From: Acidimicrobiia bacterium
Lineage (GTDB): Bacteria > Actinomycetota > Acidimicrobiia > Spongiisociales > ZC4RG35
Length of the DNA: 64,000 nt
NCBI GenBank assembly: GCA_036380875.1
Contig: DASVDX010000070.1
Span: forward strand, 20,233 to 84,232
Direction: 5' to 3'
Shown: one piece after another, positions 31,161 to 61,655 of the stretch
Layout of the letters: the number at the start of each line of letters is the position of its first letter
Numbering within the stretch: position 1 is the stretch's first letter
Translations under genes and position numbers: made by a program
Notes under the pieces: generated by a model
Told to the model about the DNA's origin: nothing
The model's input: only the letters and a program-made list of their open reading frames with translations
Databases searched by the model: none

Positions 31161-31162
31161 GC

Positions 31163-32479
31163 TCAGGAGGAGAGGATCTCCGCAAGTTCCGTGAGGTCGG
31201 CGTCGGTGCTGCCGGTCGTGACCCGGATGTGGCCCTCGAACGTGGGCCGGAGCTGGAAGGGACGCCCGGGGGCGACTGCGATCCCTCGCGCCGCAAGCAT
31301 CACCAGTGCCGCCTGCTCATCGGGCACCGCCACCCACAAGTTCAGGCCATCGGAGCCCGTGGTCGTGAACCCGTGCTCCGCCATCGCCGCCGCCAGCTTC
31401 GCCCGCCGCTGCCCGTAGACCGACCGCGCCTCGGAGACCAGCCGTTCGACCTCCGGGTCCCCGAGCAATTCAGCCAGCAGGCTCTGGAGGAATCGCGACG
31501 TCCACGCCGGGCCGAGGCGGCGACGGTCGACCAGCTCGGCGAGGGCGGCCGAAGGTCCGGCGATGCTGGCGATGCGGAAGTCCGGGCCGTGCGACTTCGA
31601 GAAACTCGTTATGTGGAGAACGCGCTCCGGGAGGTGGGCTCCGATGCTGACCAGCGGAGACGACGAGATCATTCCCGAGTGGTCGTCCTCGATGACCCAG
31701 GCACCCGAACGGGCGATGACTTCCGCCAGCTCCTTGGCACGCCGCTCCGTCATCGAAACACCCGTGGGGTTCTGGGCGCGGGGCTGGATGACGACGCCGA
31801 CGGGGCGCTGCCGCAAGGCGCGGGCGAGTGAGTCGGGGACCATCCCCTCGTCGTCGATCTCGACCGGCACCGCCACTCCGCCGTGCTCTTCGATGAGGTC
31901 GAAGATCGGCGGAAAACCGGGGTCGGCCACCGCCACCCGATCACCCAGCCTCACCCGCGGCCCCAGCAGCCGGTCGAGAGCGTCCAGAGCGCCGTCGACG
32001 ACGGTGAGAGCCTCGGCGGGATACGGGAGCCGACGGCGGATCTGCTCCTCGAGCTTCGGCACCACGGGCGGGGCGATGTAGCTCGACGGATGGGGGACCT
32101 CCTTCACCCTCTCGAGCGCCGACTGGATGGGAGGAAGCAGGGCCGGATCGGGCATCCCCGTGGAGAGGTCGAGCCGGAACTCGCCGTGGCGGGAGTAGCG
32201 GAAGAAGCGGACGGCGTGGCGCCTCTCCAGGAGGGGGACGAACGACCCCGCTCGTCCGCGTGTCTCGATCATCCCCGCGTCCGCCAACTGGGCCCAGGCC
32301 CGCGAGATGGTCGCCACGCCGACTCCCAGCTCGGCGGCGATGGCTCTGACCGTCGGAAGCCGTTCGCCCGGAGCGAGAGCACCCTCGCGGATCATCCCGC
32401 TCACCGCCTCGACCACTCCGGCGACCGACCGGTCGCGAATCATGCTGGCGAGTTGGGCGGCGTCCACGGCCGGAAACAT
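31163..32479 (-). CDS. MocR/GabR-family regulator (GntR HTH + PLP aminotransferase-like domain)
   Basis: GERLPTVRAIAAELGV HTH, QNPTG, IEDD, SFSK; divergent from ABC operon; start re-picked at ATG 32479. Confidence 0.92.
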   Translation of the reverse strand: MFPAVDAAQLASMIRDRSVAGVVEAVSGMIREGALAPGERLPTVRAIAAELGVGVATISRAWAQLADAGMIETRGRAGSFVPLLERRHAVRFFRYSRHGEFRLDLSTGMPDPALLPPIQSALERVKEVPHPSSYIAPPVVPKLEEQIRRRLPYPAEALTVVDGALDALDRLLGPRVRLGDRVAVADPGFPPIFDLIEEHGGVAVPVEIDDEGMVPDSLARALRQRPVGVVIQPRAQNPTGVSMTERRAKELAEVIARSGAWVIEDDHSGMISSSPLVSIGAHLPERVLHITSFSKSHGPDFRIASIAGPSAALAELVDRRRLGPAWTSRFLQSLLAELLGDPEVERLVSEARSVYGQRRAKLAAAMAEHGFTTTGSDGLNLWVAVPDEQAALVMLAARGIAVAPGRPFQLRPTFEGHIRVTTGSTDADLTELAEILSS

Positions 32480-32486
32480 ACCTGAA

Positions 32487-32501
32487 ACAATTCGATTTTG
32501 T
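32487..32501. promoter_or_regulatory. Candidate operator ACAA-N7-TTGT
   Basis: AT-rich inverted repeat ACAATTCGATTTTGT in the divergent intergenic region. Confidence 0.45.
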
Positions 32502-32524
32502 CGTCGATCCGTCCATCGAACGCG

Positions 32525-32530
32525 TATAGT
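32525..32530 (+). promoter_or_regulatory. -10 element (TATAGT) of the ABC/pyrimidine operon
   Basis: Near-consensus hexamer 8 nt before GTG 32539. Confidence 0.6.
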
Positions 32531-32538
32531 CGACCGCC

Positions 32539-33426
32539 GTGGCAGCGGCGAGACAGTCAGGGCGGAGCGGCACCGGCCCGATGCGTCGCGTCTTCGCTTT
32601 CCTGGTCGTCCTGGCGTTGCTCGCAATCCTCTGGGAGGGCTACAAGCTCCTCGGTGCCCTCTGGGGTGGGACCTGGCCCATCCTCGGCACGGAGATGCGT
32701 CCCCGCCCCGGAGACAGCTCGATGCCCCATGTGTGGGACGTGATCGCCGCCCTCTTCGCCCCGGCCCGCCGCAACGCCGAGCCGCTGATCCTCACGCTGT
32801 TCGTGGCGACCCTCTACACGCTCCGGGAGGCGCTCGTGGGTTTCCTGGTCGGCGCGCTGGTCGGCTTCTCCATCGGGGTGGTCTTCGTGCGCTCGTTGTC
32901 GGCAGAACGAGCATTCATGCCCTACGTCGTGGCCAGTCAGACCATCCCCATCATCGCCGTGGCGCCGATGGTCGTCGTGTGGGGCCGCCAGCTCGAGCTC
33001 CCTGGCTGGACGATGGTGTCGATCATCGCCGCCTACCTGACGTTCTTCCCCGTGGCGATCAACACCGTTCGCGGCCTCCGCTCGCCGGAGGCCACCGCCA
33101 CCGAGTTGTTCGACTCGTACGCCGCCACGCCCTGGCAGCGACTGACCAAGCTCCAGATCCCATCGGCACTGCCCTACATCTTCACCGCCCTCAGGGTGTC
33201 GGCAGCTGCCTCCGTGGTCGGGGCGATCGTGGGCGAGCTGCCGGCCGGGTTCGCCGACGGCCTGGGACGCGCCCTGCTCCAGTTCAACCAGACGTTCGCG
33301 GCCGACCCCGCCAAGTTGTACGCCGCCGTGTTGATGTCCGCCCTCGGAGGGATCGTCTTCGTGGGTGCGGTGGCCTTGGCAGAGCGGCTGACTCTTCCCT
33401 CGGCTCGCCGGGAGGTGACGACCTGA
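32539..33426 (+). CDS. ABC transporter permease (SsuC/TauC-like)
   Basis: TM helices, QTIPIIAVAP, FFP...NTVRGL, KLQIPSALPYIFTALR; start could be ATG 32581. Confidence 0.9.
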   Translation: MAAARQSGRSGTGPMRRVFAFLVVLALLAILWEGYKLLGALWGGTWPILGTEMRPRPGDSSMPHVWDVIAALFAPARRNAEPLILTLFVATLYTLREALVGFLVGALVGFSIGVVFVRSLSAERAFMPYVVASQTIPIIAVAPMVVVWGRQLELPGWTMVSIIAAYLTFFPVAINTVRGLRSPEATATELFDSYAATPWQRLTKLQIPSALPYIFTALRVSAAASVVGAIVGELPAGFADGLGRALLQFNQTFAADPAKLYAAVLMSALGGIVFVGAVALAERLTLPSARREVTT

Positions 33427-34202
33427 TGGACTACATCGTCGACGCCCAAAAGCTGTCGAAGACCTTCACCGGCAGCTCAGGCACCGTGCACGCACTGGCC
33501 GACATCGACCTCCAGATCGAGCCTGGCGAGTTCGTGTCGCTGATCGGGCCTTCGGGCTGCGGCAAGTCGACACTCCTGCGGTTGATCGGCGATCTGCTCG
33601 CGCCCAGCTCGGGGACCCTAAGCGTCAACGGCAAGGATCCGCATCGAGCCCGGGTCGATGGCGACTACGGCATCGCCTTCCAGAAAGCCACCCTGCTGGA
33701 TTGGCGGACCGTTCGTCGCAACGTCGAGCTTCCCCTGGAGTTGGCCGGCGTCCCGGCCGAGGAACGGCGGTCGCGAGCCGACGAACTGCTGCAGATGGTG
33801 AACCTCGCCGAGTTCGCCGACCACTACCCGTGGCAGCTGTCGGGCGGTATGCAGCAGCGCGTGGCGATTGCCCGGGCCCTCGGTCAGCGTCCGCCGCTTC
33901 TCCTCATGGACGAGCCATTCGGCGCCCTGGACGAAATGACGCGGGAATCGATGCAGCAGGAGCTCATGCGCATATGGCGGGACACGGGCACGACTGTCGT
34001 GTTCGTCACGCATTCCATCCCCGAAGCCGTCTTCCTTTCGACGAGGGTGGTGGTCATGTCCGCCCGTCCGGGCCGCATCACGCATCGCATAACCGTGGAT
34101 CTGCCTCAGCCGCGCGACTTCGAGGTACGCGAAAGCCCTCGCTTCTTCGAGCTGATCACCGAGGTCCGCGAGGCGTTGCGCCAGAGGGAGGTGACGGTGT
34201 GA
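33426..34202 (+). CDS. ABC transporter ATP-binding protein
   Basis: GPSGCGKST, LSGGMQQR, LLMDEPFGALD, FVTH. Confidence 0.95.
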   Translation: MDYIVDAQKLSKTFTGSSGTVHALADIDLQIEPGEFVSLIGPSGCGKSTLLRLIGDLLAPSSGTLSVNGKDPHRARVDGDYGIAFQKATLLDWRTVRRNVELPLELAGVPAEERRSRADELLQMVNLAEFADHYPWQLSGGMQQRVAIARALGQRPPLLLMDEPFGALDEMTRESMQQELMRIWRDTGTTVVFVTHSIPEAVFLSTRVVVMSARPGRITHRITVDLPQPRDFEVRESPRFFELITEVREALRQREVTV

Positions 34203-34972
34203 GGTGGCTCCGCCACCGCGCCGTCGCTCCGATTCTCGCCTTCGTCGCTGTCGTCGGCCTCTGGGAGCTCGTCGTCAAGAGCCTCTCCATCGAGTCGTTC
34301 ATCCTCCCGGCGCCGTCGGCGATCTGGTCGTCCTTCGTCGGCAACGCCGCCACCATCTGGCCCTATGGGCTCCGAACGCTGGGGGAGGCGCTCGGGGGCC
34401 TCGTGATCGGCACCGTCCTCGGCGTGCTGGCGGCCGCTGCCGTGGCCCGTTGGACGACGCTGCGTCTCGGGGCGATGCCTTTCGCCGCCGCAGTCAACGC
34501 CATGCCGATCGTCGCCACCGCCCCGATCTTCAACCAGCTGTTCGGGTCGACCAACCCTGTCTCGAAGATGGCGGTGGTGGCCGTCATGGTGTTCTTCCCG
34601 GTGATGGCCAACACCACGCGGGGTCTCGCCGAAGTGGACCCGTCCGAGCTGGAGTTGATGCGGGCGATGGCCGCCTCCCCATACACGGTGCTCCGTCGGG
34701 TCCGTATACCCAACGCCCTCCCGTACTTCTTCACGGCTATGAAGGTGGCGGTGCCCCTCTCTCTGATCGGGGCGATCATCGCCGAGTACTTCGGCGGGCC
34801 CCAGAACGTGCTCGGCCAATACATCGTCAACCGGGCACAGCTGTTCCAGTTCCCCGACGCCTGGGCGGCGATCCTCGTGTCCGCCGTGCTCGGCATCGGG
34901 ATGTATCTCGTGGTTCTGGTCAGCGAGCGCCTCGTCATGCCGTGGCACGTTTCGTTGCGAGCGACGGAATGA
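34199..34972 (+). CDS. ABC transporter permease
   Basis: TM helices, FFP...NTTRGL, VRIPNALPYFF, IGAIIAEYF. Confidence 0.9.
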   Translation: MRWLRHRAVAPILAFVAVVGLWELVVKSLSIESFILPAPSAIWSSFVGNAATIWPYGLRTLGEALGGLVIGTVLGVLAAAAVARWTTLRLGAMPFAAAVNAMPIVATAPIFNQLFGSTNPVSKMAVVAVMVFFPVMANTTRGLAEVDPSELELMRAMAASPYTVLRRVRIPNALPYFFTAMKVAVPLSLIGAIIAEYFGGPQNVLGQYIVNRAQLFQFPDAWAAILVSAVLGIGMYLVVLVSERLVMPWHVSLRATE

Positions 34973-35021
34973 GGAGGGTTTCGATGGCCGGAGAGAGGCA
35001 ACAACGACCCTGGGAGGAACG

Positions 35022-36191
35022 ATGACAACGACGTATCGGCGCCTGCTGGCCCTGTTGGCTGTATTGGCGCTCTTCCTCGCCGCTTGCGGTGGCGGTGGCG
35101 AGGAAGCCGACGACACGGCCCCAGCCGATGACACCGCACCCGCCGGCACGGAGGGGGACACCGGCTCTGACGCGGAGGCGTGCGACAGCCCCGACCAGGT
35201 TCGGCTGCAGCTGCAATGGTTCGCCCAGGCGCAGTTCGCCGGCTACTACGCCGCCATCGACCAGGGGTACTACGCCGACCGGTGTCTGGAGGTCGAGATC
35301 CTCGAAGGCGGCGTCGACATCGTCCCCCAGCAGGTCCTGGCTTCCGGGGGAGCCGAGTTCGGCATCGCCTGGGTGCCGAAGGCACTCGTCTCCCGGGAAG
35401 CCGGCGCCGACATCATCAACATCGCCCAGGTGTTCGAGCGCTCCGGCACCCTGATGGTGAGCTGGGCCGAGTCGGGCATCGACTCGCCGGAGGACTGGGC
35501 CGGCAAGAAGGTCGGCAACTGGGGCTTCGGCAACGAGTACGAGCTGCTCGCTGCGATCGAGAAGTTCGACGTCCAGGACGTCGAACTCGTCGCCCAGGAC
35601 TTCACGATGACCGCTCTCCTGAACCGGGAGATCGACGCCGCCGAGGCGATGACGTACAACGAGTACGCCCAGGTCCTCGAGGCCGAGAATCCCGAGACTG
35701 GTGAGCTCTACCAGCCCGAGGACCTGACCGTCATCGACTTCAACGACGTCGGCACGGCGATGCTCCAGGACGCCATCTGGGTCAACGCCGACTGGATCGC
35801 CGAGAACGAGGACGTCGCCCAGCGGTTCCTCGAGGCGAGCTTCGAGGGATGGATCTACTGCCGCGACAACCCCGACGACTGCGTCCAGTCGGTGCTCGAC
35901 GCCGGCTCCACCCTCGGCTTGAGCCACCAGACCTGGATGATGAACGAGATCAACGCCTTGATCTGGCCGGCCAGCAACGGGATCGGGGTCATGAACGAGG
36001 ATCTGTGGAACCAGACCGTCGAAATCGCCACGACGCAGATCCCCGACCTCCAAGGCGTGGAGATCAGCCCGGACGTCTACCGCTCCGACCTGGCCGAAGC
36101 GGCGGTCGCCGCCCTCGAAGAGGACGGCCTCGACACGAGAGGCGAAGGCTGGGAGCGGGTCGAGGTGCAGCTCAGCCCGGGCGGCGAGTAG
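35022..36191 (+). CDS. ABC substrate-binding lipoprotein (NMT1/THI5-like)
   Basis: Lipobox LAAC; LQLQWFAQAQFAGYYAA...GYY; SD GGAGGA. Confidence 0.9.
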   Translation: MTTTYRRLLALLAVLALFLAACGGGGEEADDTAPADDTAPAGTEGDTGSDAEACDSPDQVRLQLQWFAQAQFAGYYAAIDQGYYADRCLEVEILEGGVDIVPQQVLASGGAEFGIAWVPKALVSREAGADIINIAQVFERSGTLMVSWAESGIDSPEDWAGKKVGNWGFGNEYELLAAIEKFDVQDVELVAQDFTMTALLNREIDAAEAMTYNEYAQVLEAENPETGELYQPEDLTVIDFNDVGTAMLQDAIWVNADWIAENEDVAQRFLEASFEGWIYCRDNPDDCVQSVLDAGSTLGLSHQTWMMNEINALIWPASNGIGVMNEDLWNQTVEIATTQIPDLQGVEISPDVYRSDLAEAAVAALEEDGLDTRGEGWERVEVQLSPGGE

Positions 36192-36205
36192 AACTCGAGG
36201 TAAGA

Positions 36206-36236
36206 GGGGTGGGGCGGCCTGGCGTCGCCCCACCCC
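36206..36236 (+). other. GC-rich intergenic stem-loop after the binding-protein gene
   Basis: GGGGTGGGGCGGC / GTCGCCCCACCCC 13-bp stem without U-tail. Confidence 0.6.
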
Positions 36237-36257
36237 CCGGGAGAGAGGAGGACGAGC

Positions 36258-37100
36258 ATGTCCAACATCGTCAGAGCGGCAATTCTCCAGACCGAGTGGA
36301 CCGGCGACAAAGAGTCGATGGTCGACAAGCACGTCAAATACGCCGAGCAGGCGGCCAACGAGGGCGCCCAGGTGATGTGCTTCCAGGAGATCTTCAACAC
36401 TCCGTACTTCTGTCAGGTGCAGGACAACGTGCACTTCGACGATGCGGAGCCGATCCCCGACGGCCCGACCATGCAGCGGATGATCCAGCTCGCCAAGGAC
36501 ACCGAGATGGTGCTGGTCGTGCCGATGTTCGAGAAGGCCGACGAGGGCTTCTACTACAACACGGCGGCCGTGATCGACGCCGACGGGACGTACCTCGGCA
36601 AATACCGCAAGACCCACATTCCCCACGTCAACGGGTTCTGGGAGAAGTTCTACTTCCGGCCCGGCAACCTCGGCTACCCGGTGTTCGACACCAAGGTCGG
36701 CCGCATCGGGGTCTACATCTGCTACGACCGCCACTTCCCCGAGGGCTGGCGCGCTCTCGGGCTCGCCGGCGCCAAGATCGTGTTCAACCCGTCGGCGACC
36801 AGCCGCGGGCTGTCCATGTACCTGTGGAAGCTGGAGCAGCCGGCCGCGGCGGTGGCCAACGAGTACTTCATCGGGGCCATCAACCGGGTCGGCAAGGAAC
36901 CGTTCGGCGACAACGACTTCTATGGGTCGTCCTACTTCGTGGACCCGCGTGGCCAGATCGTGGGCGAAGCGGCGTCCGACACGGACGAAGAACTCGTGGT
37001 GCGGGACCTCGAGATGGACATGATCGAGGAGGTTCGCCGGATCTGGGCGTTCTATCGCGACCGTCGCCCCGACGCCTACCAGTCCCTGGTGGAGCCATGA
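36258..37100 (+). CDS. Nitrilase-family amidohydrolase, probable beta-ureidopropionase
   Basis: Triad motifs CFQEIF, YRKTHIP, ICYDRHFPE; operon context. Confidence 0.88.
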   Translation: MSNIVRAAILQTEWTGDKESMVDKHVKYAEQAANEGAQVMCFQEIFNTPYFCQVQDNVHFDDAEPIPDGPTMQRMIQLAKDTEMVLVVPMFEKADEGFYYNTAAVIDADGTYLGKYRKTHIPHVNGFWEKFYFRPGNLGYPVFDTKVGRIGVYICYDRHFPEGWRALGLAGAKIVFNPSATSRGLSMYLWKLEQPAAAVANEYFIGAINRVGKEPFGDNDFYGSSYFVDPRGQIVGEAASDTDEELVVRDLEMDMIEEVRRIWAFYRDRRPDAYQSLVEP

Positions 37101-37106
37101 GATCCA

Positions 37107-37137
37107 AGTCGGAAATCGGCAGCCGGGAACCGGAAGT
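37107..37137 (+). repeat. Degenerate heptamer tandem repeat
   Basis: AGTCGGA AATCGGC AGCCGGG AACCGGA AGT. Confidence 0.7.
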
Positions 37138-37140
37138 GTC

Positions 37141-38433
37141 ATGAGCGTGCACGCAGAACTCCTCGCCAGGCATCGCCAGGTGATGCCGAACTGGCTGGCG
37201 CTCTACTACGAGGAGCCGATCTCGCTCGTCGACGGGCAGGGGAGGAGGGTCACGGACGCCGAAGGTGTCACCTACCTCGACTTCTTCGGCGGGATCCTGA
37301 CGACGATGACCGGGTACAACGTCCCGGAGATCGTCGAGGCGATCAAGGCCCAGGCCGAGAAGATGGTCCATACCTCGACCCTGTACCTGATCGAGTCACA
37401 GATCGAGCTCGCCGAGAAGATCGCCGAGCTGTCGGGAATCCCCGACGCCAAGGTGTTCTTCACCAACTCGGGCACCGAGGCCAACGACACCGCCTTGATG
37501 CTGGCGACGCAGTATCGGCGGTCGAACCAGATCCTGGCGATCCGCGGTAGCTACCACGGGAAGTCCCACTCCACGGTGGCGATCACCGGGCAGAGGGCGT
37601 GGTCGGCCACCTCGCTTTCGCCGTTCGACGTCGTCTATGTGCACGGCGGCTACAAGCTGCGTTCGCCGTTCGGGCACCTTTCCGACGAGGAGTTCACCGC
37701 TGCCTGCGTCGCCGACCTGGAGAACCTCCTCGAGGTCGCCACCGCCGGTGACGTGGCGGCGATGATCGCCGAGCCCATCCAGGGCGTGGGCGGCTTCGTC
37801 ACCCCGCCCGACGGCTTCTTCGGCGCGATGGAGGAGGTGCTCGACCGTCACGGCATCCTCTTCATCTCCGACGAGGTCCAGACGGGGTGGGGCCGGACCG
37901 GTGAGCACTTCTGGGGCTACCAGGCCCACGGGATCACGCCCGACATCTTGACGTTCGCCAAGGGACTCGGGAACGGGCTGGCGATCGCCGGGGTGGTCGC
38001 CCGCGCCGAGATCATGGACTGCCTGGCCGCCAACTCGATCTCCACTTTCGGCGGAAACCCGTTGTCCACCGCCGGCGCCCTCGCCAACCTCGACTACGTC
38101 CTGAAACACGACCTGCAGTCGAATGCCTTCAAGATGGGTGGCCAGCTGAAGGAGGGCCTCGACTCCATCGCCGCCGAGGTCCCCGAGGTCCTCGAGGTGA
38201 GAGGCAAGGGCCTCATGCTGGGAGTGGAGTTCGGCCGACCCGACGGCACCCCCGACCCCGCCCTCACGGCCCGGGTGATGGAAGAAGCGAAGGCGGGACG
38301 ACTGCTGATCGGCAAGGGTGGGCTCTACGGCAACACGCTGCGCATCGCCCCACCCCTCACCGTCACCGCCGACGAGGTGGCCGAGGGTCTGGAGATCCTC
38401 GAAACCGCCGTGAAGCGAGCAACAGGAGGCTGA
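37141..38433 (+). CDS. Class III PLP aminotransferase, probable beta-alanine transaminase
   Basis: YLDFFGG, FTNSGTEAN, AEPIQGVGG, DEVQTGWGRTG, TFAKG. Confidence 0.9.
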   Translation: MSVHAELLARHRQVMPNWLALYYEEPISLVDGQGRRVTDAEGVTYLDFFGGILTTMTGYNVPEIVEAIKAQAEKMVHTSTLYLIESQIELAEKIAELSGIPDAKVFFTNSGTEANDTALMLATQYRRSNQILAIRGSYHGKSHSTVAITGQRAWSATSLSPFDVVYVHGGYKLRSPFGHLSDEEFTAACVADLENLLEVATAGDVAAMIAEPIQGVGGFVTPPDGFFGAMEEVLDRHGILFISDEVQTGWGRTGEHFWGYQAHGITPDILTFAKGLGNGLAIAGVVARAEIMDCLAANSISTFGGNPLSTAGALANLDYVLKHDLQSNAFKMGGQLKEGLDSIAAEVPEVLEVRGKGLMLGVEFGRPDGTPDPALTARVMEEAKAGRLLIGKGGLYGNTLRIAPPLTVTADEVAEGLEILETAVKRATGG

Positions 38434-38437
38434 GCCG

Positions 38438-39853
38438 ATGGCACGCACAATCATCGCCAACGGAACCGTCGTCACTGCAACCGACCGGGTGCCCGCCGAC
38501 GTCCTCATCGAGGGCGAGAAGATCGTCGCCATGGCCGCTCCCGGCAGCCACGACTGGACGGCCGACGAGACGATCGACGCCGCCGGCAAGTACGTGATCC
38601 CCGGCGGCATCGACGTCCACACCCACATGGAACTCCCGTTCGGGGGCACCTTCGCCTCCGACACGTTCGAAACCGGGACGCGCGCCGCCGCTTGGGGTGG
38701 CACGACCACCATCGTGGACTTCGCCGTCCAAACCAGGGGCACGAGCCTCATGGAGGGATTCGAGGCCTGGCGGGAGAAGGCTGACGGCAACTGCGCCATC
38801 GACTACGGGTTCCACCTGATCATCTCCGACGTCAACGAGCAGACGCTCAAGGAGATGGAGACCGCCTTCGACGAAGGCGTCACCTCCTACAAGATGTTCA
38901 TGGCCTATCCCGGCGTCTTCTACTCCGACGACGGGCAGATCTTCCGGGCCATGCAGAAGGCATCGGAGAACGGCTCGACGATCATGATGCACGCCGAGAA
39001 CGGCATCGCCATCGACGTCCTCGTCGAGCAGGCCCTCCAGCGAGGCGAAACCGACCCCATCTATCACGGCATCGTCCGCAAGTCGATTCTCGAAGGCGAG
39101 GCGACCCACCGGGCGATCAAGCTGGCGGAACTGGCCGGGGCGCCGCTCTACATCGTCCATCTCTCCGCCATGGAAGCACTGGAGGAGGTGACGATCGCCC
39201 GCGACCAGGACCTGAACGTTTTCGCCGAGACATGCCCCCAGTACCTGCTACTGGGCCTCGACGACCTGGGCAACGGGTTCGAGGGCGCCAAGTACGTGTG
39301 CTCGCCCCCGCTGCGTGACTGGGAAGCCGGCCACCAGGAGGAGCTCTGGAGGGGTCTGCGCGGCAACGACCTCCAGGTCGTCTCCACCGACCACTGCCCG
39401 TTCTGCATGGACGAGTTCGATGGCCTCATCGCCCAGAAGCGGCTCGGGGAAGGAGACTTCTCGAAGATCCCCAACGGCATGCCCGGTGTGGAGCCCCGGA
39501 TGGAGCTCATCTATCAGGCCGGTGTCGTGGAGGGGCGGATCACGCTCAACCGCTGGGTCGAGCTCTGCTCCACCGCTCCGGCCAAGATGTTCGGTATGTA
39601 CCCCGAGAAGGGGACCATCGCCGTCGGATCCGACGCCGACATCGTCATCTTCGACCCCGGGCAGTCGAAGACCATCTCGGTCGAGAACCAGCACATGCGG
39701 GTCGACTACTCCGCCTACGAAGGCTGGGAGGTGTCAGGAACCGTCGACATGGTGCTCAGCCGGGGCCGCAAGATCGTCTCGAGCGGCGAGTACCTGGGCG
39801 AGCAGGGACACGGACGCTACGTGAAGAGGGGCATCAACCAATATGCCCACTGA
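38438..39853 (+). CDS. hydA: Dihydropyrimidinase
   Basis: PGGIDVHTH, YKMFMAY, MHAENG, YIVHLS, STDHCPF, IPNGMPGVE. Confidence 0.95.
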   Translation: MARTIIANGTVVTATDRVPADVLIEGEKIVAMAAPGSHDWTADETIDAAGKYVIPGGIDVHTHMELPFGGTFASDTFETGTRAAAWGGTTTIVDFAVQTRGTSLMEGFEAWREKADGNCAIDYGFHLIISDVNEQTLKEMETAFDEGVTSYKMFMAYPGVFYSDDGQIFRAMQKASENGSTIMMHAENGIAIDVLVEQALQRGETDPIYHGIVRKSILEGEATHRAIKLAELAGAPLYIVHLSAMEALEEVTIARDQDLNVFAETCPQYLLLGLDDLGNGFEGAKYVCSPPLRDWEAGHQEELWRGLRGNDLQVVSTDHCPFCMDEFDGLIAQKRLGEGDFSKIPNGMPGVEPRMELIYQAGVVEGRITLNRWVELCSTAPAKMFGMYPEKGTIAVGSDADIVIFDPGQSKTISVENQHMRVDYSAYEGWEVSGTVDMVLSRGRKIVSSGEYLGEQGHGRYVKRGINQYAH

Positions 39854-39898
39854 CAGGAAGGGGGAGAGCGGGACAGCCCGCCTCCACAGGGAGCAACC

Positions 39899-41395
39899 AT
39901 GAAACGAATAGCACATTGGATCGGCGGGAAGGCGTGGGACGCCGAGCCCGAGCGCACCGGCCCGGTCTACAACCCGGCGACGGGTGAGCAGACAGGAGAG
40001 GTGGCTCTGGCCACGGTGGCCGAGGTGGACGCCGCAGTCGAGGCGGCCCGCAAGGCGTTCGAGGAGTGGCGAGACGTGCCGATCACCCGCCGCCAGAACG
40101 TCATGTTCGATTTCCGCCGCATCGTGGCGGAGCGCCGCCGGGAGATGGCGGAGGTGCTGACCTCCGAACACGGCAAGACCATCCCGGACGCCCTAGGGGA
40201 GGTGCAGCGCGGGCTGGAGGTGATCGAATTCGCCTGCAACATCGCTCACCTCACCAAAGGCGAGTACTCCGAGCAGGTCTCCACCGGCGTGGACACCTAC
40301 ACGATCCGCCAACCGCTGGGGGTCGTGGCGGGCATCACCCCGTTCAACTTCCCAGCGATGGTGCCCATGTGGATGTATCCGCTGGCGATCGCGGCGGGGA
40401 ACACGTTCGTGTTGAAGCCGTCGGAGAAGGACCCGTCGGCGTCGCTCCTCGCCGCCCAGTGGCTCGAGGAGGCGGGCCTGCCGCCGGGTGTGTTCAACGT
40501 GGTCCATGGTGACAAGGTGGCGGTGGACCGGATCCTCGAGCACCCCGACATCGCCGCGGTGTCCTTCGTCGGGTCCACCCCCATCGCCCGATACATCTAC
40601 GAGAACGGCACCAAACACGGGAAACGTGTCCAGGCTCTGGGCGGGGCGAAGAACCACATGGTGGTGCTGCCCGACGCCGACATGGAACTGGCCGCCGACG
40701 CCGCCGTGTCCGCTGGGTTCGGCTCGGCAGGTGAGCGGTGCATGGCCATCTCGGTCGTGGTGACGGTGGGCGACGCCGCCGACCGTTTGCTGCCGAAGGT
40801 GCTGGAGCGGATCGAGAAGCTGCGCACTGGACCGGGCGACGATCCCGACTCGGAGATGGGCCCGCTGGTGACCCCGGAGCACCGCCAACGCGTCCTCGGC
40901 TACATCGAGAAAGGCATCGAAGAAGGCGCCGAGCTCGTGGTCGACGGCCGCGGCTACGCCCCCGAAGGCTACGAAAACGGGTTCTACGTGGCACCGACGC
41001 TGTTCGACAGAGTCACGCCCGACATGACGATCTACAAGGAAGAGATCTTCGGGCCCGTGCTGTCGACGGTCCGGATGGACACGTATCAGCAAGCTATCGA
41101 CCTGATCAACGCCAACCCCTACGGCAACGGCACCGCCGTGTTCACCAACGACGGGGGAGCGGCGCGCCTGTTCCAGAACCAGATACAGGTCGGCATGGTC
41201 GGCATCAACCTGCCGATTCCCGTCCCGTTGGCGTTCTACAGCTTCGGGGGCTGGAAGAACTCACTGTTCGGAACCCACCCGATCTACGGGCCGTACGGGG
41301 TCGACTTCTACACGCGACAGAAGGTCGTCATCAGCCGCTGGCCCGACCCGATGCATCGGGGCGTGGATCTCGGCTTCCCCCAGCACGGATCATGA
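39899..41395 (+). CDS. mmsA: CoA-acylating (methyl)malonate-semialdehyde dehydrogenase
   Basis: GITPFNFPAMVPMW, LKPSEKDP, FVGSTPIA, GGAKNH, AGERCMA, EEIFGPV. Confidence 0.95.
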   Translation: MKRIAHWIGGKAWDAEPERTGPVYNPATGEQTGEVALATVAEVDAAVEAARKAFEEWRDVPITRRQNVMFDFRRIVAERRREMAEVLTSEHGKTIPDALGEVQRGLEVIEFACNIAHLTKGEYSEQVSTGVDTYTIRQPLGVVAGITPFNFPAMVPMWMYPLAIAAGNTFVLKPSEKDPSASLLAAQWLEEAGLPPGVFNVVHGDKVAVDRILEHPDIAAVSFVGSTPIARYIYENGTKHGKRVQALGGAKNHMVVLPDADMELAADAAVSAGFGSAGERCMAISVVVTVGDAADRLLPKVLERIEKLRTGPGDDPDSEMGPLVTPEHRQRVLGYIEKGIEEGAELVVDGRGYAPEGYENGFYVAPTLFDRVTPDMTIYKEEIFGPVLSTVRMDTYQQAIDLINANPYGNGTAVFTNDGGAARLFQNQIQVGMVGINLPIPVPLAFYSFGGWKNSLFGTHPIYGPYGVDFYTRQKVVISRWPDPMHRGVDLGFPQHGS

Positions 41396-41401
41396 CCCTG
41401 A

Positions 41402-41433
41402 AGTCGGCAGTCGGAAATCGGCAGTCGGAAGTC
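41402..41433 (+). repeat. Heptamer tandem repeat
   Basis: AGTCGGC AGTCGGA AATCGGC AGTCGGA AGTC; shares a 16-mer with 37107-37122. Confidence 0.8.
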
Positions 41434-41573
41434 CTCCCGCGGCGGCAGCGGACGCGAACCGCGGACGATTCCCGTTCGAAGACAGGCGCGACCAGCGTCC
41501 ACGCCAGTATGACGACGCGCGGGGGTTTCGGGGGGGTCGTGCCCCCGCCCGAGTGCAGCGAGGGAAAGTGGTC

Positions 41574-42581
41574 ATGGAGTTCGGTGTAGTCATCCAGACC
41601 GACCCACCGGCCTCGAGGGTCATCGAGCTGGCCAAGCTGGCTGAGGCGAACGGGTTCACCTACGGGTGGACCTTCGACTCCCACGTCCTGTGGCAGGAGC
41701 CGTTCGTCATCTACTCGCAGATGCTGGCGCAGACCGAGCGGATGATCGTCGGCCCGATGGTGACGAACCCGGGGACACGGGACTGGACGGTTCTGGCGTC
41801 GTTGTTCGCCACGCTGAACGAGATGTTCGACGGGCGGACGATTTGCGGCATGGGACGAGGTGACTCCGCCCTCCGCTACATCAATCAGCAGCCGACGACC
41901 CTGCAGACGATGGTCGAATCGATGCGGATCATCAAGGCCCTGGTGGCCGGCGAGTCCGTCGTCTACAACGGCAAGGAGCTGCGGATCCCCTGGATCCCGG
42001 AGGGGGGAGGCTGGGAGCTGCCGATGTGGGGAGCCGGCTACGGGCCCAAGGCGCTCGCCACCATCGGGGAGCACTGCGACGGGTTCATCCTCCAACTCGC
42101 CGACCCCCAGATCCTCGAATGGACGATGGGAACCGTCCGCGAGGCGGCGGAACGAGCCGGCCGGGATCCCGACGAGATCGCCATCTGTGTGGTCGCCCCG
42201 GCATACGTCGGCGACGACATCGCCCACCAGCGCGACCAGGTGAGGTGGTTCGGCGGGATGGTCGGCAACCACGTCGCTGACCTCGTGGAGCGGTACGGCA
42301 AGGACGGCCCCATCCCCAAGGTCCTCACCGACTACATCGACGCCCGCAAGGGCTACGACTACGACCACCACGGCAGGTCCGACAACCCCTCGACCGACTT
42401 CGTCCCCGACGACATCGTGGACCGCTTCTGCGTGCTCGGCACGGTCGAGGACCACATCGCCAAGTTGTCCGAGTTGAGGGACCTGGGCGTCGACCAGTTC
42501 GGCATCTACCTGATGCACGACAACAAGGAGGGGACTCTCCAGGCCTACGGGGAAAAGATCATCCCCGCTCTGGCCGGCTGA
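41574..42581 (+). CDS. LLM-class, probably F420-dependent oxidoreductase (TIGR03842-like)
   Basis: MEFGVVIQTDPP, WTFDSHVLWQEPF, GPMVTNP.TR, GRGDSA, GYGPKAL. Confidence 0.85.
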   Translation: MEFGVVIQTDPPASRVIELAKLAEANGFTYGWTFDSHVLWQEPFVIYSQMLAQTERMIVGPMVTNPGTRDWTVLASLFATLNEMFDGRTICGMGRGDSALRYINQQPTTLQTMVESMRIIKALVAGESVVYNGKELRIPWIPEGGGWELPMWGAGYGPKALATIGEHCDGFILQLADPQILEWTMGTVREAAERAGRDPDEIAICVVAPAYVGDDIAHQRDQVRWFGGMVGNHVADLVERYGKDGPIPKVLTDYIDARKGYDYDHHGRSDNPSTDFVPDDIVDRFCVLGTVEDHIAKLSELRDLGVDQFGIYLMHDNKEGTLQAYGEKIIPALAG

Positions 42582-42604
42582 GCTCCGAACTGCAGATACC
42601 CACG

Positions 42605-42636
42605 AAAAAGGAGGGCGGCCCATCGGCCGCCCTCCT
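42605..42636 (-). terminator. Intrinsic terminator between convergent genes
   Basis: 12-bp stem AGGAGGGCGGCC-CATC-GGCCGCCCTCCT with an A-run upstream (U-tail on minus strand). Confidence 0.8.
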
Positions 42637-42659
42637 CATCGTTTCGCCGGTCTGTCGGA

Positions 42660-44684
42660 TCAGGGAGCAGCGACGACGTCGATCCGGTCCGTCGCCGGTG
42701 GATCGATCGGGCTGTTGGCCGCGAAGTAGTCCACCAGGGCGTCGAGATCGACATCACCGCCCACCCGGTCGGTGCCTTCCCGCAGCACCACGAAGTTGTC
42801 GCCTCCGTCGGCCAGGAAGCTGTTGACGGTGACGCGGTAGCTGGCGTTCAGGTCTATCGGGGTCCCGTCGATCGTGATGGTCGCCGGGTCGACCCGGTCG
42901 CCCACTGGAGCGTTGGGATCCCACGTGTAGCTGAAGCCCTCCGAGACCTGGAGGACCCGACCGGGCGGATCCTGGCCCTCCCACTGCTGCTCGAGCAGCG
43001 TCTCGATCTGGGCGCCGGTGAGCGTCATCGTCACGAGGCTGTTGCCGAACGGTTGCACGGCGAATGCCTCGCCGTAGGTCACCTCACCCGGGCCCTCGCT
43101 GCCACTGGGGGCGAAGACGAAACCGGCATCGGTGCGGATGCCGCCCGGATTCATGAACGCCACCACGGCGTTCGCCGGCGCTGCCTGGGTGGCCGCCAAC
43201 TGGGCATCAGCGATCAGGTTGCCGACCGGCGACTCGCCCGAGTCGTCGTAGTCCTCGGGGATGTCGGCGGTGATGGTCCCGATCACCTGGTTGGCCGCTT
43301 CGGCCGAGAGTTCCTCGTACTTGGTTATCAACTCGGTGAGGTCCTCTGCCGCCGTCTGGCCCTCGTGGTAGGTCGGGACGTTGTCGATCCTCACCACCTC
43401 GAGGTCGCCGGTGCCCCGGTCGATGCGGACGTCGATCTCGGTGAACAGACGCCCGGCGTTGTCGGCCATCGTCACCCACTTGCCGTCCACTTCGCAGACG
43501 AACTCGTCGTTGACATGGCCGGCGATGACGAGGTCGACGGCGTCGTCGAAGCCGGCGACGATGTCGGCGAGCGGACCGGTCAGACCGTCCAGACATTCGT
43601 CGCCTTCGGGCCCACCGTCCGAGAAGCCGCCCTCGTGGAGGAGCACGACGATCGCCTCGATGCCCTGGGCTTGCAGCTCAGGAACGAGGGCGTTCACGGT
43701 CTCTACCTCGTCGTGGAACGTGAGACCGGCCACACCCTCCTGGGTGACGATCGTCGGGGTTCCCTCGAGGGTCATCCCGATGAAGGCGACCTTCTCGTTC
43801 CAATAGGTCTTGACCGAATAGGGCGGGAAGAGCGTGTCGCCGGAGGCATCGACGGTCACGTTGGCCGCCAGGAACTGGAAGTCGGCCCCGGTGAACGGCT
43901 CACCGTCGGCGTCCGGGATCGTCGGATGTGCCCCGCCGTTCTGCATGCGGCGCAACTCCGCCGGCCCTTCATCGAATTCGTGGTTGCCGACGGCGTTGAG
44001 TTCCAATCCGATGAGGTTCATCGCCTCGATTGTCGGCTCGTCCTGGAAGAGCGCCGACACGAGCGGCGACGCCCCGATCAGGTCACCAGCCGACACGAAG
44101 ATCGAGTTCTTCACCTCGGCGCGCTCGTTGCGGATGTACGTCGCCAGGTAGTCGGCACGGCCCACCGGCTTTCCGAGCCACTCGCCCGTCGTGTTGATGT
44201 TGCCGTGGAAGTCGTTGAGGGCGAGGATCCGCAATGGCACGGAGCCGACCGAGTCGGCCCGGTGGAAGAACGCCGCCATCTGCTCGCGAGTTATGAAGTC
44301 ATCGGGGCAGAACTGGTCATTCGCAGGCGGATTGCATCCACGGGTGATGCCCGCCGCCGACAACCGGAGGATGTCCCCTTCGAACAGATGGTTGTCCGTG
44401 TCGGTGAAGTCCGTCCCCCCAGTGGTGTCGGTCAACCCGAGCGCCCGGACGAAGAACGCCGCCATCTGCCCACGAGTCACGAAATCATCGGGGCAGAACA
44501 GCGTGTTGTCGGGCGGGTTACACCCCCGGGTGATGTCGTTTTCCTTGAGCCAATCGATGTCGCCATGGAAGATGTTGCTGTCCGGCACATCTTCGAACTG
44601 GTGGGAAGCCATGCCGGGCAACGCGCCCAGGATCGTGACCAACCCGACGATCAAGGCGACCACCAATGGGGTTCGTGGTCTCAC
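42660..44684 (-). CDS. Secreted SLH-domain 5'-nucleotidase / metallophosphoesterase
   Basis: Signal peptide, two SLH repeats (GITRGCNPP...FCPDD..TR.QMAAF), NDFHG, AGDLIG, VGNHEFD, NPGGIR, QPFGN, VNSFLADGGD. Confidence 0.9.
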   Translation of the reverse strand: MRPRTPLVVALIVGLVTILGALPGMASHQFEDVPDSNIFHGDIDWLKENDITRGCNPPDNTLFCPDDFVTRGQMAAFFVRALGLTDTTGGTDFTDTDNHLFEGDILRLSAAGITRGCNPPANDQFCPDDFITREQMAAFFHRADSVGSVPLRILALNDFHGNINTTGEWLGKPVGRADYLATYIRNERAEVKNSIFVSAGDLIGASPLVSALFQDEPTIEAMNLIGLELNAVGNHEFDEGPAELRRMQNGGAHPTIPDADGEPFTGADFQFLAANVTVDASGDTLFPPYSVKTYWNEKVAFIGMTLEGTPTIVTQEGVAGLTFHDEVETVNALVPELQAQGIEAIVVLLHEGGFSDGGPEGDECLDGLTGPLADIVAGFDDAVDLVIAGHVNDEFVCEVDGKWVTMADNAGRLFTEIDVRIDRGTGDLEVVRIDNVPTYHEGQTAAEDLTELITKYEELSAEAANQVIGTITADIPEDYDDSGESPVGNLIADAQLAATQAAPANAVVAFMNPGGIRTDAGFVFAPSGSEGPGEVTYGEAFAVQPFGNSLVTMTLTGAQIETLLEQQWEGQDPPGRVLQVSEGFSYTWDPNAPVGDRVDPATITIDGTPIDLNASYRVTVNSFLADGGDNFVVLREGTDRVGGDVDLDALVDYFAANSPIDPPATDRIDVVAAP

Positions 44685-44843
44685 TCTCTCCCTCCTTCTC
44701 CTCCTCGTGCGGGCGAGAAGCCCGCCCTGCTGCCCAACGTAGCCACGTCGGGCGTCCCGCGCTCAACCTAGCGACTGCCGCGATCTTGCGCATCGGCAAC
44801 CGGCGCTCATCCGCCCTGCGCCCACCGTTACCCTGTGTCCGCT

Positions 44844-45344
44844 ATGGCCATCTTTCCGATCCGGACATTCGGCGACCCCGTGTTGCGGACTCCGGCGAAG
44901 CCCGTAGAGGAGATCGACGACAAGATCCGCACGCTGGTCGAGGACATGATCGAGACCATGTACGACGCACCCGGGGTCGGCCTGGCCGCGCCCCAGATCG
45001 GGGTCAGTTTGCGCATCGCGGTGTTCGACTCCGGCGATGGGCTCGGTGCCCGGGCGATGATCAACCCCGAACTGGTCGAAACGGCGGGGGAGTGGGAGTT
45101 CGAGGAGGGTTGCCTGTCGGTGCCCGGATACTGGTGGAACATCAAGCGGCCCGCCTACGCCAAGATCAAGGCCCTCAACGAGGAGGGTGAGGAGGTCGTG
45201 TACGAGGGCGAAGAGCTGATGGGGCGGGTGTTGCAGCACGAGTACCAGCACCTCGAGGGCATCCTGATCATCGACCAGCTCACCCGCCGGGAACGGAAGA
45301 AGGTGCTGAAGGAACTGAGCGAGCAGGCGCTGGGGCTGGGGTGA
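44844..45344 (+). CDS. def: Peptide deformylase
   Basis: GVGLAAPQIG, EGCLS, QHEYQHLEG. Confidence 0.96.
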   Translation: MAIFPIRTFGDPVLRTPAKPVEEIDDKIRTLVEDMIETMYDAPGVGLAAPQIGVSLRIAVFDSGDGLGARAMINPELVETAGEWEFEEGCLSVPGYWWNIKRPAYAKIKALNEEGEEVVYEGEELMGRVLQHEYQHLEGILIIDQLTRRERKKVLKELSEQALGLG

Positions 45345-46281: not shown

Positions 46282-46944
46282 ATGAAACCGGTACGGATCG
46301 CCCCGTCGCTGCTCGCGGCCGATTTTGGGCGTCTGGCGGAGCAGGTCGCCAAGGTCGAACCCCATGCCGACTGGCTCCACCTGGATGTGATGGACGGGCA
46401 TTTCGTGCCGAACATCAGCTTCGGCATGCCGGTGATCTCGGCGCTGCGGCCCGTATCGGACCTCTACTTCGACTGCCATCTGATGATCACCAACCCGGCC
46501 GCCTACCTCGACGACCTGGCCGAGGCGGGCGCCAACCTGGTCACCGTGCACATCGAGGCGGTACCCGACCCCACCGTCACCGCCGAGAAGGCACGTGGGC
46601 TGGGACTGGACTTCGGTCTGGTGATCAACCCGGCGACCCCGGTGCGGGCGGTCACGCCGTTCCTAGAGCTCTGCGACGTCCTATTGATCATGTCGGTGGA
46701 GCCGGGATTCGGCGGCCAGTCGTTCATGCCCGAGGCATTGACCAAGGTGATCGCCGCCCGGGAATGGGTTGAGTCGAACGACCTGTCGGTCGATATTCAG
46801 ATAGACGGTGGCATCACGACTGAGACTGCGCCCAAGGCGCGGGCGGCCGGTGCCAACGTCTTCGTCGCCGGCACCGCCATCTTCGGAGCGTCCGACCCGG
46901 CGGCGGCTGCCGACGATCTGAGAAGAGTGATAGAGGAGATATGA
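46282..46944 (+). CDS. rpe: Ribulose-phosphate 3-epimerase
   Basis: IAPSLLAADF, HLDVMDGHFVPN, MSVEPGFGGQ, IDGG. Confidence 0.97.
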   Translation: MKPVRIAPSLLAADFGRLAEQVAKVEPHADWLHLDVMDGHFVPNISFGMPVISALRPVSDLYFDCHLMITNPAAYLDDLAEAGANLVTVHIEAVPDPTVTAEKARGLGLDFGLVINPATPVRAVTPFLELCDVLLIMSVEPGFGGQSFMPEALTKVIAAREWVESNDLSVDIQIDGGITTETAPKARAAGANVFVAGTAIFGASDPAAAADDLRRVIEEI

Positions 46945-58757: not shown

Positions 58758-60284
<1,527 letters not shown>

Positions 60285-60450
60285 CTAAGGAGCTAAGACG
60301 GATGGTATTTGCACCATCCCAGCTCTTAGTTGATCTGCTGACTATTCATCTCCTTCTCCGATCTCAGAGTCTCGACGGAACGAACGAGCTCGTCGCAAGG
60401 CGAGTGGTTCGGATGAGTCGTGCCTCGAGGGAAGAGGCGAGATGGGTCAT

Positions 60451-60470
60451 GCTGTTCAGTCGTGAAGGAG
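60451..60470 (+). other. 3' strand of 16S processing stalk
   Basis: GCTGTTCAGTCGTGAAGGAG pairs with 58573-58592. Confidence 0.8.
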
Positions 60471-60520
60471 TCCTCCCGGAGGCCTGGCATGTGCCAGGCG
60501 CTCTAGGACGCCTTCAGGCA

Positions 60521-60539
60521 CCTTGAGAACTGCATAGCG
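60521..60539 (+). other. 5' strand of 23S processing stalk / boxA-like element
   Basis: CCTTGAGAACTGCATAGCG is similar to leader CCTTGACAACTGAACAGCG. Confidence 0.65.

Positions 60540-61102: not shown

Positions 61103-61133
<31 letters not shown>

Positions 61134-61622: not shown

Positions 61623-61655
<33 letters not shown>

Follow-up and report, generated by a model that had tools for sequence, protein, structure and literature searches.

Characterised dihydropyrimidine dehydrogenases (DPDs), which catalyse the first step of reductive pyrimidine catabolism, belong to the PyrD/dihydroorotate dehydrogenase (DHOD) family and are known as the NADPH-dependent PydA, the NADH-dependent PreAT of E. 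coli and the ferredoxin-dependent PydAc of Clostridium (PMC7332683). The use of F420H2 as reductant of any DPD was not reported in the searched literature. We analysed a 64-kb stretch of an Acidimicrobiia genome (64,000 nucleotides of contig DASVDX010000070.1, hereafter the window) carrying a pyrimidine catabolic gene cluster in which the place of PydA is held by a gene for a luciferase-like monooxygenase superfamily protein (LLM) of the NCBIfam family TIGR03842. This LLM is probably an F420H2-dependent uracil/thymine reductase without homology to any known DPD, and the span 32539-42581 likely forms a complete operon for pyrimidine uptake and reductive catabolism in which PydA/PreAT has been replaced by this non-homologous enzyme. 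Coordinates are positions within the window unless another record is named, and the analysis is computational throughout, combining sequence, synteny and predicted structure.

The known DPDs catalyse the reaction predicted for the LLM, which also takes their position in the pathway and, beside PydB and PydC, in the operon, but they are related to it neither in sequence nor in fold. The LLM is devoid of FMN/FAD domains and Fe-S clusters, and its hydride is predicted to come from a diffusible deazaflavin, whereas the known DPDs use an internal electron-transfer chain. Described Pyd clusters, such as pydABC of Brevibacillus agri and the variants with PydD/PydE or malonate-semialdehyde dehydrogenase (MSDH), encode the same downstream enzymes together with a dedicated transporter and a regulator (PMC7332683). 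The cluster of the window differs from them by the LLM in PydA's place, an NMT1/ThiY-type ABC transporter and a MocR-type regulator; it contains PydB as well as the transaminase and the malonate-semialdehyde dehydrogenase of the extended pathway, and no PydA in it or near it. RutA resembles the LLM by its fold, its action on uracil and its position at the first step of a pyrimidine catabolic operon, but it depends on FMN and O2, opens the ring oxidatively and needs RutF and RutB-E, which are absent from the operon of the window.

Two partial precedents come close to a deazaflavin-dependent reduction of a uracil or uracil-like ring. An F420-dependent LLM called “yanthine reductase” was proposed, on bioinformatic grounds only, to act on a uracil-like ring in uricolytic clusters of Chloroflexota (PMC12507026). 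There too an F420 LLM replaces a PydA-like/YgfK flavoenzyme ahead of a PydB-like amidohydrolase, an idea reached independently of the present one, but the case belongs to the uric acid pathway, with another substrate and in another phylum. In uridyl-peptide antibiotic clusters, NpsU/SSGG-03002 is a genetically defined uracil-ring reductase and a PPOX-like putative F420/FMN protein (PMC10714638). It provides a loose precedent for deazaflavin-type reduction of the uracil ring, its role being in nucleoside antibiotic biosynthesis; it was rejected as a precedent for the LLM itself, as its distant relatives are PPOX-class proteins (split beta-barrel) and not LLMs. Neither of these precedents concerns TIGR03842 or pyrimidine catabolism.

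The original prediction, made from the window alone, had taken the LLM for a TIGR03842-like protein of unknown function supplying the missing first step as an F420H2-dependent uracil/thymine reductase, and every computation run here supports this proposal. The LLM belongs to TIGR03842 with a score of 560 bits against a cut-off of 295.45 (E = 1.5e-168, model positions 1-329 of 329), and this family is indeed still classified as “hypoth_equivalog” in NCBIfam release 20 (June 2026), literature searches having found nothing on its function. The protein, one polypeptide chain of about 335 aa, carries a Pfam Bac_luciferase domain (212 bits) and folds as a (beta/alpha)8 barrel (AlphaFold model, pLDDT 87.6, pTM 0.89). 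PF00296 is its only domain: the DHOD-like FMN domain (PF01180), the [4Fe-4S] ferredoxin domain and Pyr_redox_2 that characterise the DPD family are all missing, so that the LLM may work like a DPD while standing outside the DPD family. The runner-up NCBIfam models are all F420-class LLMs, the best FMN-class model reaching about 40 bits, and the 16 best Foldseek matches of the predicted structure in the PDB are F420-dependent LLMs. The best of them is the Mer-F420 complex of M. jannaschii (8qpl, TM 0.81, 28% identity); FGD2, Adf and FGD1 rank next. Mer (8qpl, 1z69) is thus the closest solved relative, with the same fold (TM 0.81-0.82) and, unlike it, the LLM occurs in non-methanogenic bacteria.

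The residues of Mer analysed by Gehl et al. (PMC11094777) were mapped onto the LLM through a HMMER alignment with 8qpl. The non-prolyl cis-peptide loop after beta-3, which backs F420 in Mer (PMC11094777), is kept (G61-V62-T-N-P in Mer, M62-V63-T-N-P in the LLM), as are Asp96, a residue in contact with the pterin's pyrimidine ring in Mer (PMC11094777) and corresponding to Asp97 of the LLM, and a carboxamide at position 178 at the end of beta-6 (Gln174 in the LLM). Conversely, Val6 stands in place of the catalytic Glu6, a residue whose exchange for Gln leaves Mer with 0.4% of kcat (PMC11094777), and Gly228 in place of the hydrophobic pterin-tail residue Phe233. As the cis-peptide loop, the Asp and the carboxamide are retained and Glu6 and Phe233 are lost, the LLM appears to keep the F420 site without being a methylene-pterin reductase. 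The Mer identity was also rejected by the corresponding models, with 134.5 bits against a cut-off of 276 for NF002619 and 123.3 against 348.7 for TIGR03555. TIGR03842 has moreover a polar set of its own, absent from Mer, made of Arg95, Ser98, Arg101, Asn232-His233 and an R-x-G-Y-D-Y-x-x-H lid. The class of the matching models, the structural matches, the retained site and the presence of relatives in F420 operons together suggest that the LLM uses F420.

The genomic context of the family was examined in about 186,000 genomes, each representing one species, and at least 595 of them matched the scan pattern. Synteny was counted in the best 80 of these loci, with 10-kb flanks and an LLM identity of 63-77%; the linkage to HydA (dihydropyrimidinase) and to Nit (nitrilase-superfamily amidase) was counted in those 67 of the 80 species-level loci whose upstream sequence reaches 4 kb or more. 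The loci originate from Acidimicrobiia, Pseudonocardiales, Micromonosporales, Streptosporangiales, Propionibacteriales, Streptomyces, Rubrobacteria and Thermoleophilia, and a few from metagenome-assembled genomes (MAGs) labelled Acidobacteriota or Gammaproteobacteria. The closest relatives of the LLM (92% identity) come from Acidimicrobiia MAGs. An orthologue of HydA lies beside the LLM in 63/67 loci and Nit in 62/67, almost always on the LLM's strand, frequencies that place the LLM-HydA-Nit arrangement far beyond chance. The gene directly upstream of the LLM is HydA in 38 of the 80 loci and MmsA in 25; MmsA is present in 34, a class III transaminase in 23 and the ABC system in about 27-31. 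A minimal unit composed of an NCS1 nucleobase permease, Nit, HydA and the LLM is found in Pseudonocardiaceae and several other lineages, and the LLM is the only oxidoreductase of these operons. The Amycolatopsis group adds a PucR regulator a few kb upstream of the minimal unit, and Rubrobacteraceae display the order HydA-aminotransferase-M20/TIGR01879 carbamoylase-NCS1-LysE-LLM.

This association extends to divergent clades. At 50% identity, one clade has M20 and the LLM as a pair pointing away from ABC(NMT1)-HydA; MmsA and a transaminase are encoded close by. One clade at 42% identity has Nit-HydA-Nit on one strand and LLM-Nit-SDR-M20 on the other, and another at the same identity has the order ABC(NMT1)-amidohydrolase-LLM-CN_hydrolase. 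A member at 39% identity immediately follows a cytidine/cytosine-deaminase-type gene, and an M20 amidase is encoded close to it. Altogether, at least seven operon architectures, from Actinomycetota and Alphaproteobacteria, combine the LLM with HydA and a carbamoylase; the carbamoylases belong to two non-homologous families, the transporters to three types and the regulators likewise to three.

A direct connection to the cofactor is found on plasmids of Leisingera, where cofG-cofH-cofD-cofC-cofE-npdG(Fno)-TIGR03842 form one run. This run stands back to back with pntA-pntB-omega-aminotransferase (AptA-like)-TIGR01879 carbamoylase-hydA-NCS1 nucleobase symporter, the hydA being annotated as dihydropyrimidinase and the LLM scoring 507 bits on TIGR03842. 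Such plasmid-borne F420-LLM runs, as annotated by PGAP, were retrieved from Leisingera aquaemixtae and L. caerulea (ten records) and from Paracoccus alcaliphilus. In L. aquaemixtae (plasmid NZ_CP081034.1, 142193-158002; loci L115/L117) as in the P. alcaliphilus plasmid (L116), the LLM is the last gene of the F420 operon, and in the latter this operon is adjoined by an ABC transporter. By its gene content, the Leisingera locus reads as a self-sufficient module that would make the cofactor, pass reducing power from NADH through NADPH to F420H2, and combine a single F420 enzyme with all steps of reductive pyrimidine degradation bar a conventional dehydrogenase.

The absence of a Fe-S/flavin DPD from the window, on which the original prediction was founded, holds with one qualification. 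A tblastn search with E. coli PreT and PreA gave no match in the operon and, in the whole window, a single weak PreA-like match at 23416-24276, which corresponds to the biosynthetic pyrD. This gene passed two PyrD models (the second with 281 bits against a cut-off of 270) and failed the PreA model (118 against 335). It is located between carB and pyrF, overlapping the start of pyrF, in a pyrR-pyrB-pyrC-carAB-pyrD-pyrF operon, and its 306 aa leave no room for the Fe-S C-terminal extension of PreA. Being a class-1 PyrD of a pyr operon and under the PreA cut-off, it was rejected as a hidden DPD; it is the sole PF01180-type gene of the window, and no pyrK-like partner was seen adjoining it. By tblastn, PreA and PreT were also absent within 10 kb of the LLM in the 80 loci, except for a weak PreT-like segment in one of them (L028), and were absent from the further LLM-containing loci examined, Leisingera included. 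The profiling of the LLM against preAT suggested with the original prediction, carried out at the level of loci, therefore gave a linkage to HydA and a carbamoylase that is kept and, bar the L028 segment, no PreAT.

The importer, amidase, aminotransferase, HydA, MmsA and LLM genes listed in the original prediction are all present, intact and on the + strand (Table 1). The span it had singled out, 36258-42581, runs exactly from the start of Nit to the stop of the LLM, the ABC importer lying directly upstream and outside of it. From the start of permease 1 to the stop of mmsA, adjacent genes overlap or are 4-66 nt apart. Nit, HydA, MmsA and the transaminase all have intact catalytic motifs, including the metal ligands of HydA (complete HxH, carboxylated-Lys, His, His and Asp motifs) and the GERCMA motif of MmsA with its catalytic Cys. 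HydA aligns with 516 bits to the solved D-hydantoinases/dihydropyrimidinases 1yny and 3sfw. The closest solved relatives of the aminotransferase are the GabT/PuuE 4-aminobutyrate transaminases, and it is predicted to be a beta-alanine/beta-aminoisobutyrate transaminase (PydD-like). Nit reaches the cut-off of no NCBIfam model (best aguB, 259 bits against 410), and its closest solved relatives are an N-carbamoylputrescine amidohydrolase (201 bits) and animal beta-ureidopropionases (186 and 177 bits), ahead of D-carbamoylases (about 97 bits). It is predicted to be a beta-ureidopropionase (PydC-like), an assignment owed to its context given the missed cut-offs and the similar closeness to N-carbamoylputrescine amidase.

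Table 1. Coordinates of the pyrimidine catabolic operon and of other features of the 64-kb window
Feature	Position	Strand	Evidence or remark
pyrD, class-1 dihydroorotate dehydrogenase, 306 aa	23377-24294	+	NF005574, 307 bits vs cut-off 269
MocR/GabR-type regulator	31163-32479	-	Pfam GntR + Aminotran_1_2; NCBIfam MocR-like models match, all below cut-offs
ABC permease 1	32539-33426	+	BPD_transp_1, 71 bits; start may be ATG at 32581
ABC ATPase, NitT/TauT type	33426-34202	+	ABC_tran, 113 bits; best NCBIfam models are taurine/nitrate-type ATPases
ABC permease 2	34199-34972	+	tblastn of conserved permease from other loci, 45% identity, E 5e-55
Substrate-binding lipoprotein, NMT1/THI5/ThiY type	35022-36191	+	Pfam NMT1, 134 bits
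Nit, nitrilase-superfamily N-carbamoyl amidase	36258-37100	+	CN_hydrolase, 224 bits; E44/K118/C155 triad
Class III aminotransferase	37141-38433	+	Aminotran_3, 319 bits
HydA (PydB), dihydropyrimidinase/D-hydantoinase	38438-39853	+	TIGR02033 equivalog, 582 bits vs cut-off 393
MmsA, CoA-acylating (methyl)malonate-semialdehyde dehydrogenase	39899-41395	+	TIGR01722, 739 bits vs cut-off 448
mmsA-LLM spacer, 178 nt	41396-41573	+	Tandem 13-mer, hairpin, GAGGGA ribosome-binding site (read from sequence)
LLM, TIGR03842 F420-class oxidoreductase	41574-42581	+	TIGR03842, 560 bits vs cut-off 295
SLH-anchored 5'-nucleotidase/phosphoesterase, 674 aa	42660-44684	-	N-terminal S-layer-homology (SLH) domain
Response-regulator receiver-GGDEF protein	46941-47870	+	GGDEF match to positions 5-94 of 161-position Pfam model
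rRNA operon	58758-64000	+	Complete 16S 58758-60284; 23S from 60565, cut by window end

On the import side, the start codon of the ATPase overlaps the stop of permease 1 as ATGA, which suggests translational coupling, and permease 1 is kept beside the LLM cluster in about 25 of the 80 loci. Permease 2 has a GTG start behind a GGAGG ribosome-binding site and overlaps the stop codon of the ATPase; the longest mechanical open reading frame (ORF) of this region, 34204-35025, was rejected as permease 2, since it lies in the wrong frame, with no Pfam or NCBIfam match and no similarity to permease 1. The only solved relatives of the binding protein are the formylaminopyrimidine-binding ThiY (3ix1), 4nmy and THI13, and it probably binds the imported pyrimidine or dihydropyrimidine. 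The divergent MocR gene, with a probable ATG start at 32479, encodes a GntR helix-turn-helix fused to an aminotransferase-like domain; it is likely the regulator of the operon, possibly sensing beta-alanine or a related amine, and has a homologue in the same divergent position in 7/80 loci.

On this basis, uracil or thymine would be imported by the ABC system with its ThiY-like binding protein, and F420H2, bound in the TIM-barrel active site of the LLM, would hand the hydride at its deazaflavin C5 to the pyrimidine at C6. The C5 of the pyrimidine would be protonated by a general acid, probably the conserved His37 of a D35-S36-H37 motif, which we take to be the counterpart of the conserved acid/base histidine of FGD1 and Adf. 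The product would be 5,6-dihydrouracil or dihydrothymine. Such a reaction is chemically plausible: delivery of the hydride to C6 ahead of C5 protonation parallels the FMNH2/Cys mechanism of DPD, F420H2 donates hydrides obligatorily and has a lower potential (about -340 mV) than NAD(P)H, and F420 enzymes reduce conjugated C=C bonds. HydA would then open the ring, the nitrilase-type amidase would free NH3, CO2 and beta-alanine or beta-aminoisobutyrate, the class III transaminase would yield malonate or methylmalonate semialdehyde, and MmsA would turn these semialdehydes into acetyl-CoA or propionyl-CoA. The F420H2 would be supplied by Fno (from NADPH) or by Fgd encoded elsewhere in the genome, and the operon would be under the control of the divergent MocR regulator.

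Other explanations of the same gene cluster were considered. The LLM could be an F420H2 reductase feeding HydA whose substrate is another unsaturated cyclic ureide degraded by the operon, such as a 5-/6-substituted or modified pyrimidine, an alkylidene-hydantoin or a nucleoside, and the caveat of the original prediction that another heterocycle could be concerned stands. HydA-type enzymes are promiscuous D-hydantoinases, a name borne by the closest solved relatives of the present one, the NCS1 permeases matched in linked loci belong to a family that includes hydantoin transporters, the binding protein is like ThiY, which binds a substituted aminopyrimidine, and Nit is as close to N-carbamoylputrescine amidase as to beta-ureidopropionase. 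The extra enzymes of some divergent clades (FAA_hydrolase, CoA-transferases, SDR, two to three CN_hydrolases) also suggest other substrates. We nevertheless regard this explanation as rather unlikely: MmsA (34/80) and the transaminase (23/80), both encoded in the window, exactly fit the beta-alanine and beta-aminoisobutyrate derived from uracil and thymine, HydA passes the dihydropyrimidinase equivalog model, Nit is far nearer to beta-ureidopropionase than to the D-carbamoylases, and a cytosine/cytidine-deaminase-type gene is found directly upstream of the LLM in one clade. A role further down the pathway, for example as an F420-dependent malonate-semialdehyde reductase (a PydE/RutE analogue) or in another redox step of beta-alanine metabolism, would agree with the LLM being the last gene of the operon, after mmsA and a 178-nt spacer, and with the extended Pyd pathways with a semialdehyde reductase that are known (cited in PMC7332683); the operon would then import dihydropyrimidines or use a DPD possibly encoded elsewhere in the genome. 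It is however very unlikely, because the LLM directly follows HydA in 38/80 loci whose operons have neither transaminase nor MmsA, and where in consequence no semialdehyde would be made, because such a reductase would be redundant where MmsA is present, and because the linkage is with the pair of HydA and a carbamoylase, whichever the carbamoylase family.

As the LLM fold alone leaves the cofactor unfixed and RutA is itself a luciferase-like monooxygenase attacking uracil, an FMN-dependent, RutA-like monooxygenase was also weighed. It appears extremely improbable given that no RutA model is among the 20 NCBIfam matches at E <= 1e-5 and FMN-class models reach about 40 bits against 560, that the operon has no flavin reductase and none of the RutB-F partners (isochorismatase-type amidase, RidA, hydrolase), and that an oxidative opening of the ring would make HydA pointless; relatives in F420-biosynthesis operons with Fno and the best structural matches, all F420 enzymes, point in the same direction. 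Finally, the LLM could be uncoupled from the pathway, its adjacency reflecting the shared ancestry of a gene block or an unrelated co-regulation. One phylum supplies most of the 80 loci, which could share one ancestral arrangement, and some family members stand in unrelated contexts, but the association is kept through at least seven gene orders and orientations, with two carbamoylase families, three transporter types and three regulator types, over two phyla and 42-77% LLM identity. Such a persistence across reshuffled orders and phyla indicates selection for co-localisation rather than inertia and makes the uncoupled state most doubtful.

The identification of the LLM as an F420H2-dependent uracil/thymine reductase also has to be balanced against several observations that weigh on the opposite side. 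PreA and PreT were searched over 10 kb on each side of the LLM, and a PreAT or PydA may be encoded elsewhere in the genomes. Most of the family-specific polar residues also occur in TIGR03842 clades unlinked to HydA, so that a specificity for uracil cannot be read from the LLM sequence. Homologues of FbiC, CofC, CofD, CofE and Fno were found neither in the 64-kb window nor in the 80 loci, and the production of F420 by the organism is thus assumed from its phylum. In a marine clade above the TIGR03842 cut-off (about 40% identity), returned by a metagenome scan with a single-protein query (P0142), three tandem paralogues occur without HydA; the P. alcaliphilus LLM is also unlinked to HydA, and two borderline members (P0167, P0172) stand in unrelated contexts with no HydA link, from which it follows that TIGR03842 is not uniformly a pyrimidine reductase. 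Even in the close clade, HydA is missing in 4/67 loci, and a gammaproteobacterial MAG (L014, OZ244895.1) encodes a fusion of the LLM with an isochorismatase domain and lacks HydA in the 10 kb on either side. In the window itself, the 178-nt spacer parts the LLM from mmsA, and their co-transcription is putative. Lastly, our literature searches, which covered open-access sources, found nothing linking F420, LLM or TIGR03842 with dihydropyrimidine catabolism; a report in a subscription journal is possible.

Pathway and enzyme superfamily are both known, and what is likely new is the non-homologous solution to the first step. Extended to its relatives, this interpretation makes it fairly likely that the HydA-linked members of TIGR03842 constitute a class of DPD structurally unrelated to the known ones, single-subunit, Fe-S-free and driven by F420H2, that F420 takes part in central nucleobase catabolism across Actinomycetota and that, in roseobacters such as Leisingera, a plasmid island with the full set of F420-biosynthesis genes, Fno and PntAB serves essentially to drive this reaction. 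If true, a function would be given to a widespread orphan family annotated as hypothetical by NCBI since 2010, and the first step of reductive pyrimidine catabolism would gain a fourth reductant and a second protein fold. F420 is mostly tied to methanogenesis, antibiotic biosynthesis, xenobiotic reduction and prodrug activation; its involvement here would represent a housekeeping role in aerobic bacteria, the recovery of nitrogen and carbon from nucleobases, and would help explain the retention of F420 and the plasmid-borne F420 pathways of some Proteobacteria. Pathway reconstructions would improve as well, since many Actinomycetota in which no DPD can be recognised would otherwise be scored as unable to degrade pyrimidines. 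As a small enzyme free of Fe-S clusters, a uracil/thymine reductase of this kind might also serve as a biocatalyst which, with hydantoinases, would give access to dihydropyrimidines or beta-amino acids.

The spacer ahead of the LLM has features of its own. The LLM ORF extends over 41553-42581, its real start being probably the ATG at 41574 behind the GAGGGA ribosome-binding site. Upstream, a perfect 13-mer, TCGGCAGTCGGAA, is present twice, one base apart, at 41404-41430, followed by a G/C-rich hairpin, GGGGGGGTCGTGCCCCCGCCC, at about 41523-41545. These elements may act as an internal regulatory site, for instance as an operator or attenuator that serves the LLM alone. The 13-mer has no further mismatch-free copy in the window; it was not found in the MocR promoter and was therefore rejected as an operator shared with it. 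The promoter/terminator consensus scan called neither a promoter nor a terminator in the spacer and gave nothing above shuffled expectation over 31000-45000, and an Rfam scan found no riboswitch in the operon, the rRNA genes being its sole matches.

Among the relatives, some loci have further particularities. In the 602-aa ORF of L014 (10001-11809), the LLM part is 70% identical to that of the window and the C-terminal part has a RutB/carbamoylsarcosine-amidase fold; its neighbours encode DUF1932 and AIRC-like proteins. In the marine clade (metagenome contigs L085-L093), the three tandem paralogues are part of an F420-biosynthesis operon and stand between fno and cofD: FbiC, CofC and Fno are encoded ahead of them, and CofD, CofE, a PNPOx-like protein and another LLM behind (L087, 2506-13210). 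No pyrimidine-catabolic genes were found near the three paralogues. A DUF1330 gene accompanies the F420-LLM operon in both Leisingera and Paracoccus. On a JGI contig (P0154, sample 3300056388; 3180-7482), an IclR gene, an M20 amidase gene and a small cytidine/dCMP-deaminase-family gene are grouped with two tandem LLMs at 39% identity, a cluster that may represent a cytosine-to-uracil entry branch.

The cluster sits in a housekeeping neighbourhood of a window with about 67% GC. Its 5' side comprises hisS, aspS, alaS, aro genes, efp, the pyrR-pyrB-pyrC-carAB-pyrD-pyrF operon, gmk, coaBC, metK and priA. The gene call based on GC at third codon positions (GC3) missed pyrD and favoured an antisense ORF (23487-23963). 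On the 3' side lie the convergent SLH-anchored 5'-nucleotidase, def, fmt, rpe, a rib operon, infC, pheT, argF and an rRNA operon, to which the fall of the GC content to about 57-60% near the end of the window is due. The 5'-nucleotidase could release nucleosides extracellularly; it was rejected as a component of the system, being beside the cluster in 0/80 related loci. Between rpe and ribD, one gene joins a response-regulator receiver domain to a GGDEF domain whose match to the Pfam model is partial, so that this cyclase domain may be degenerate or truncated.

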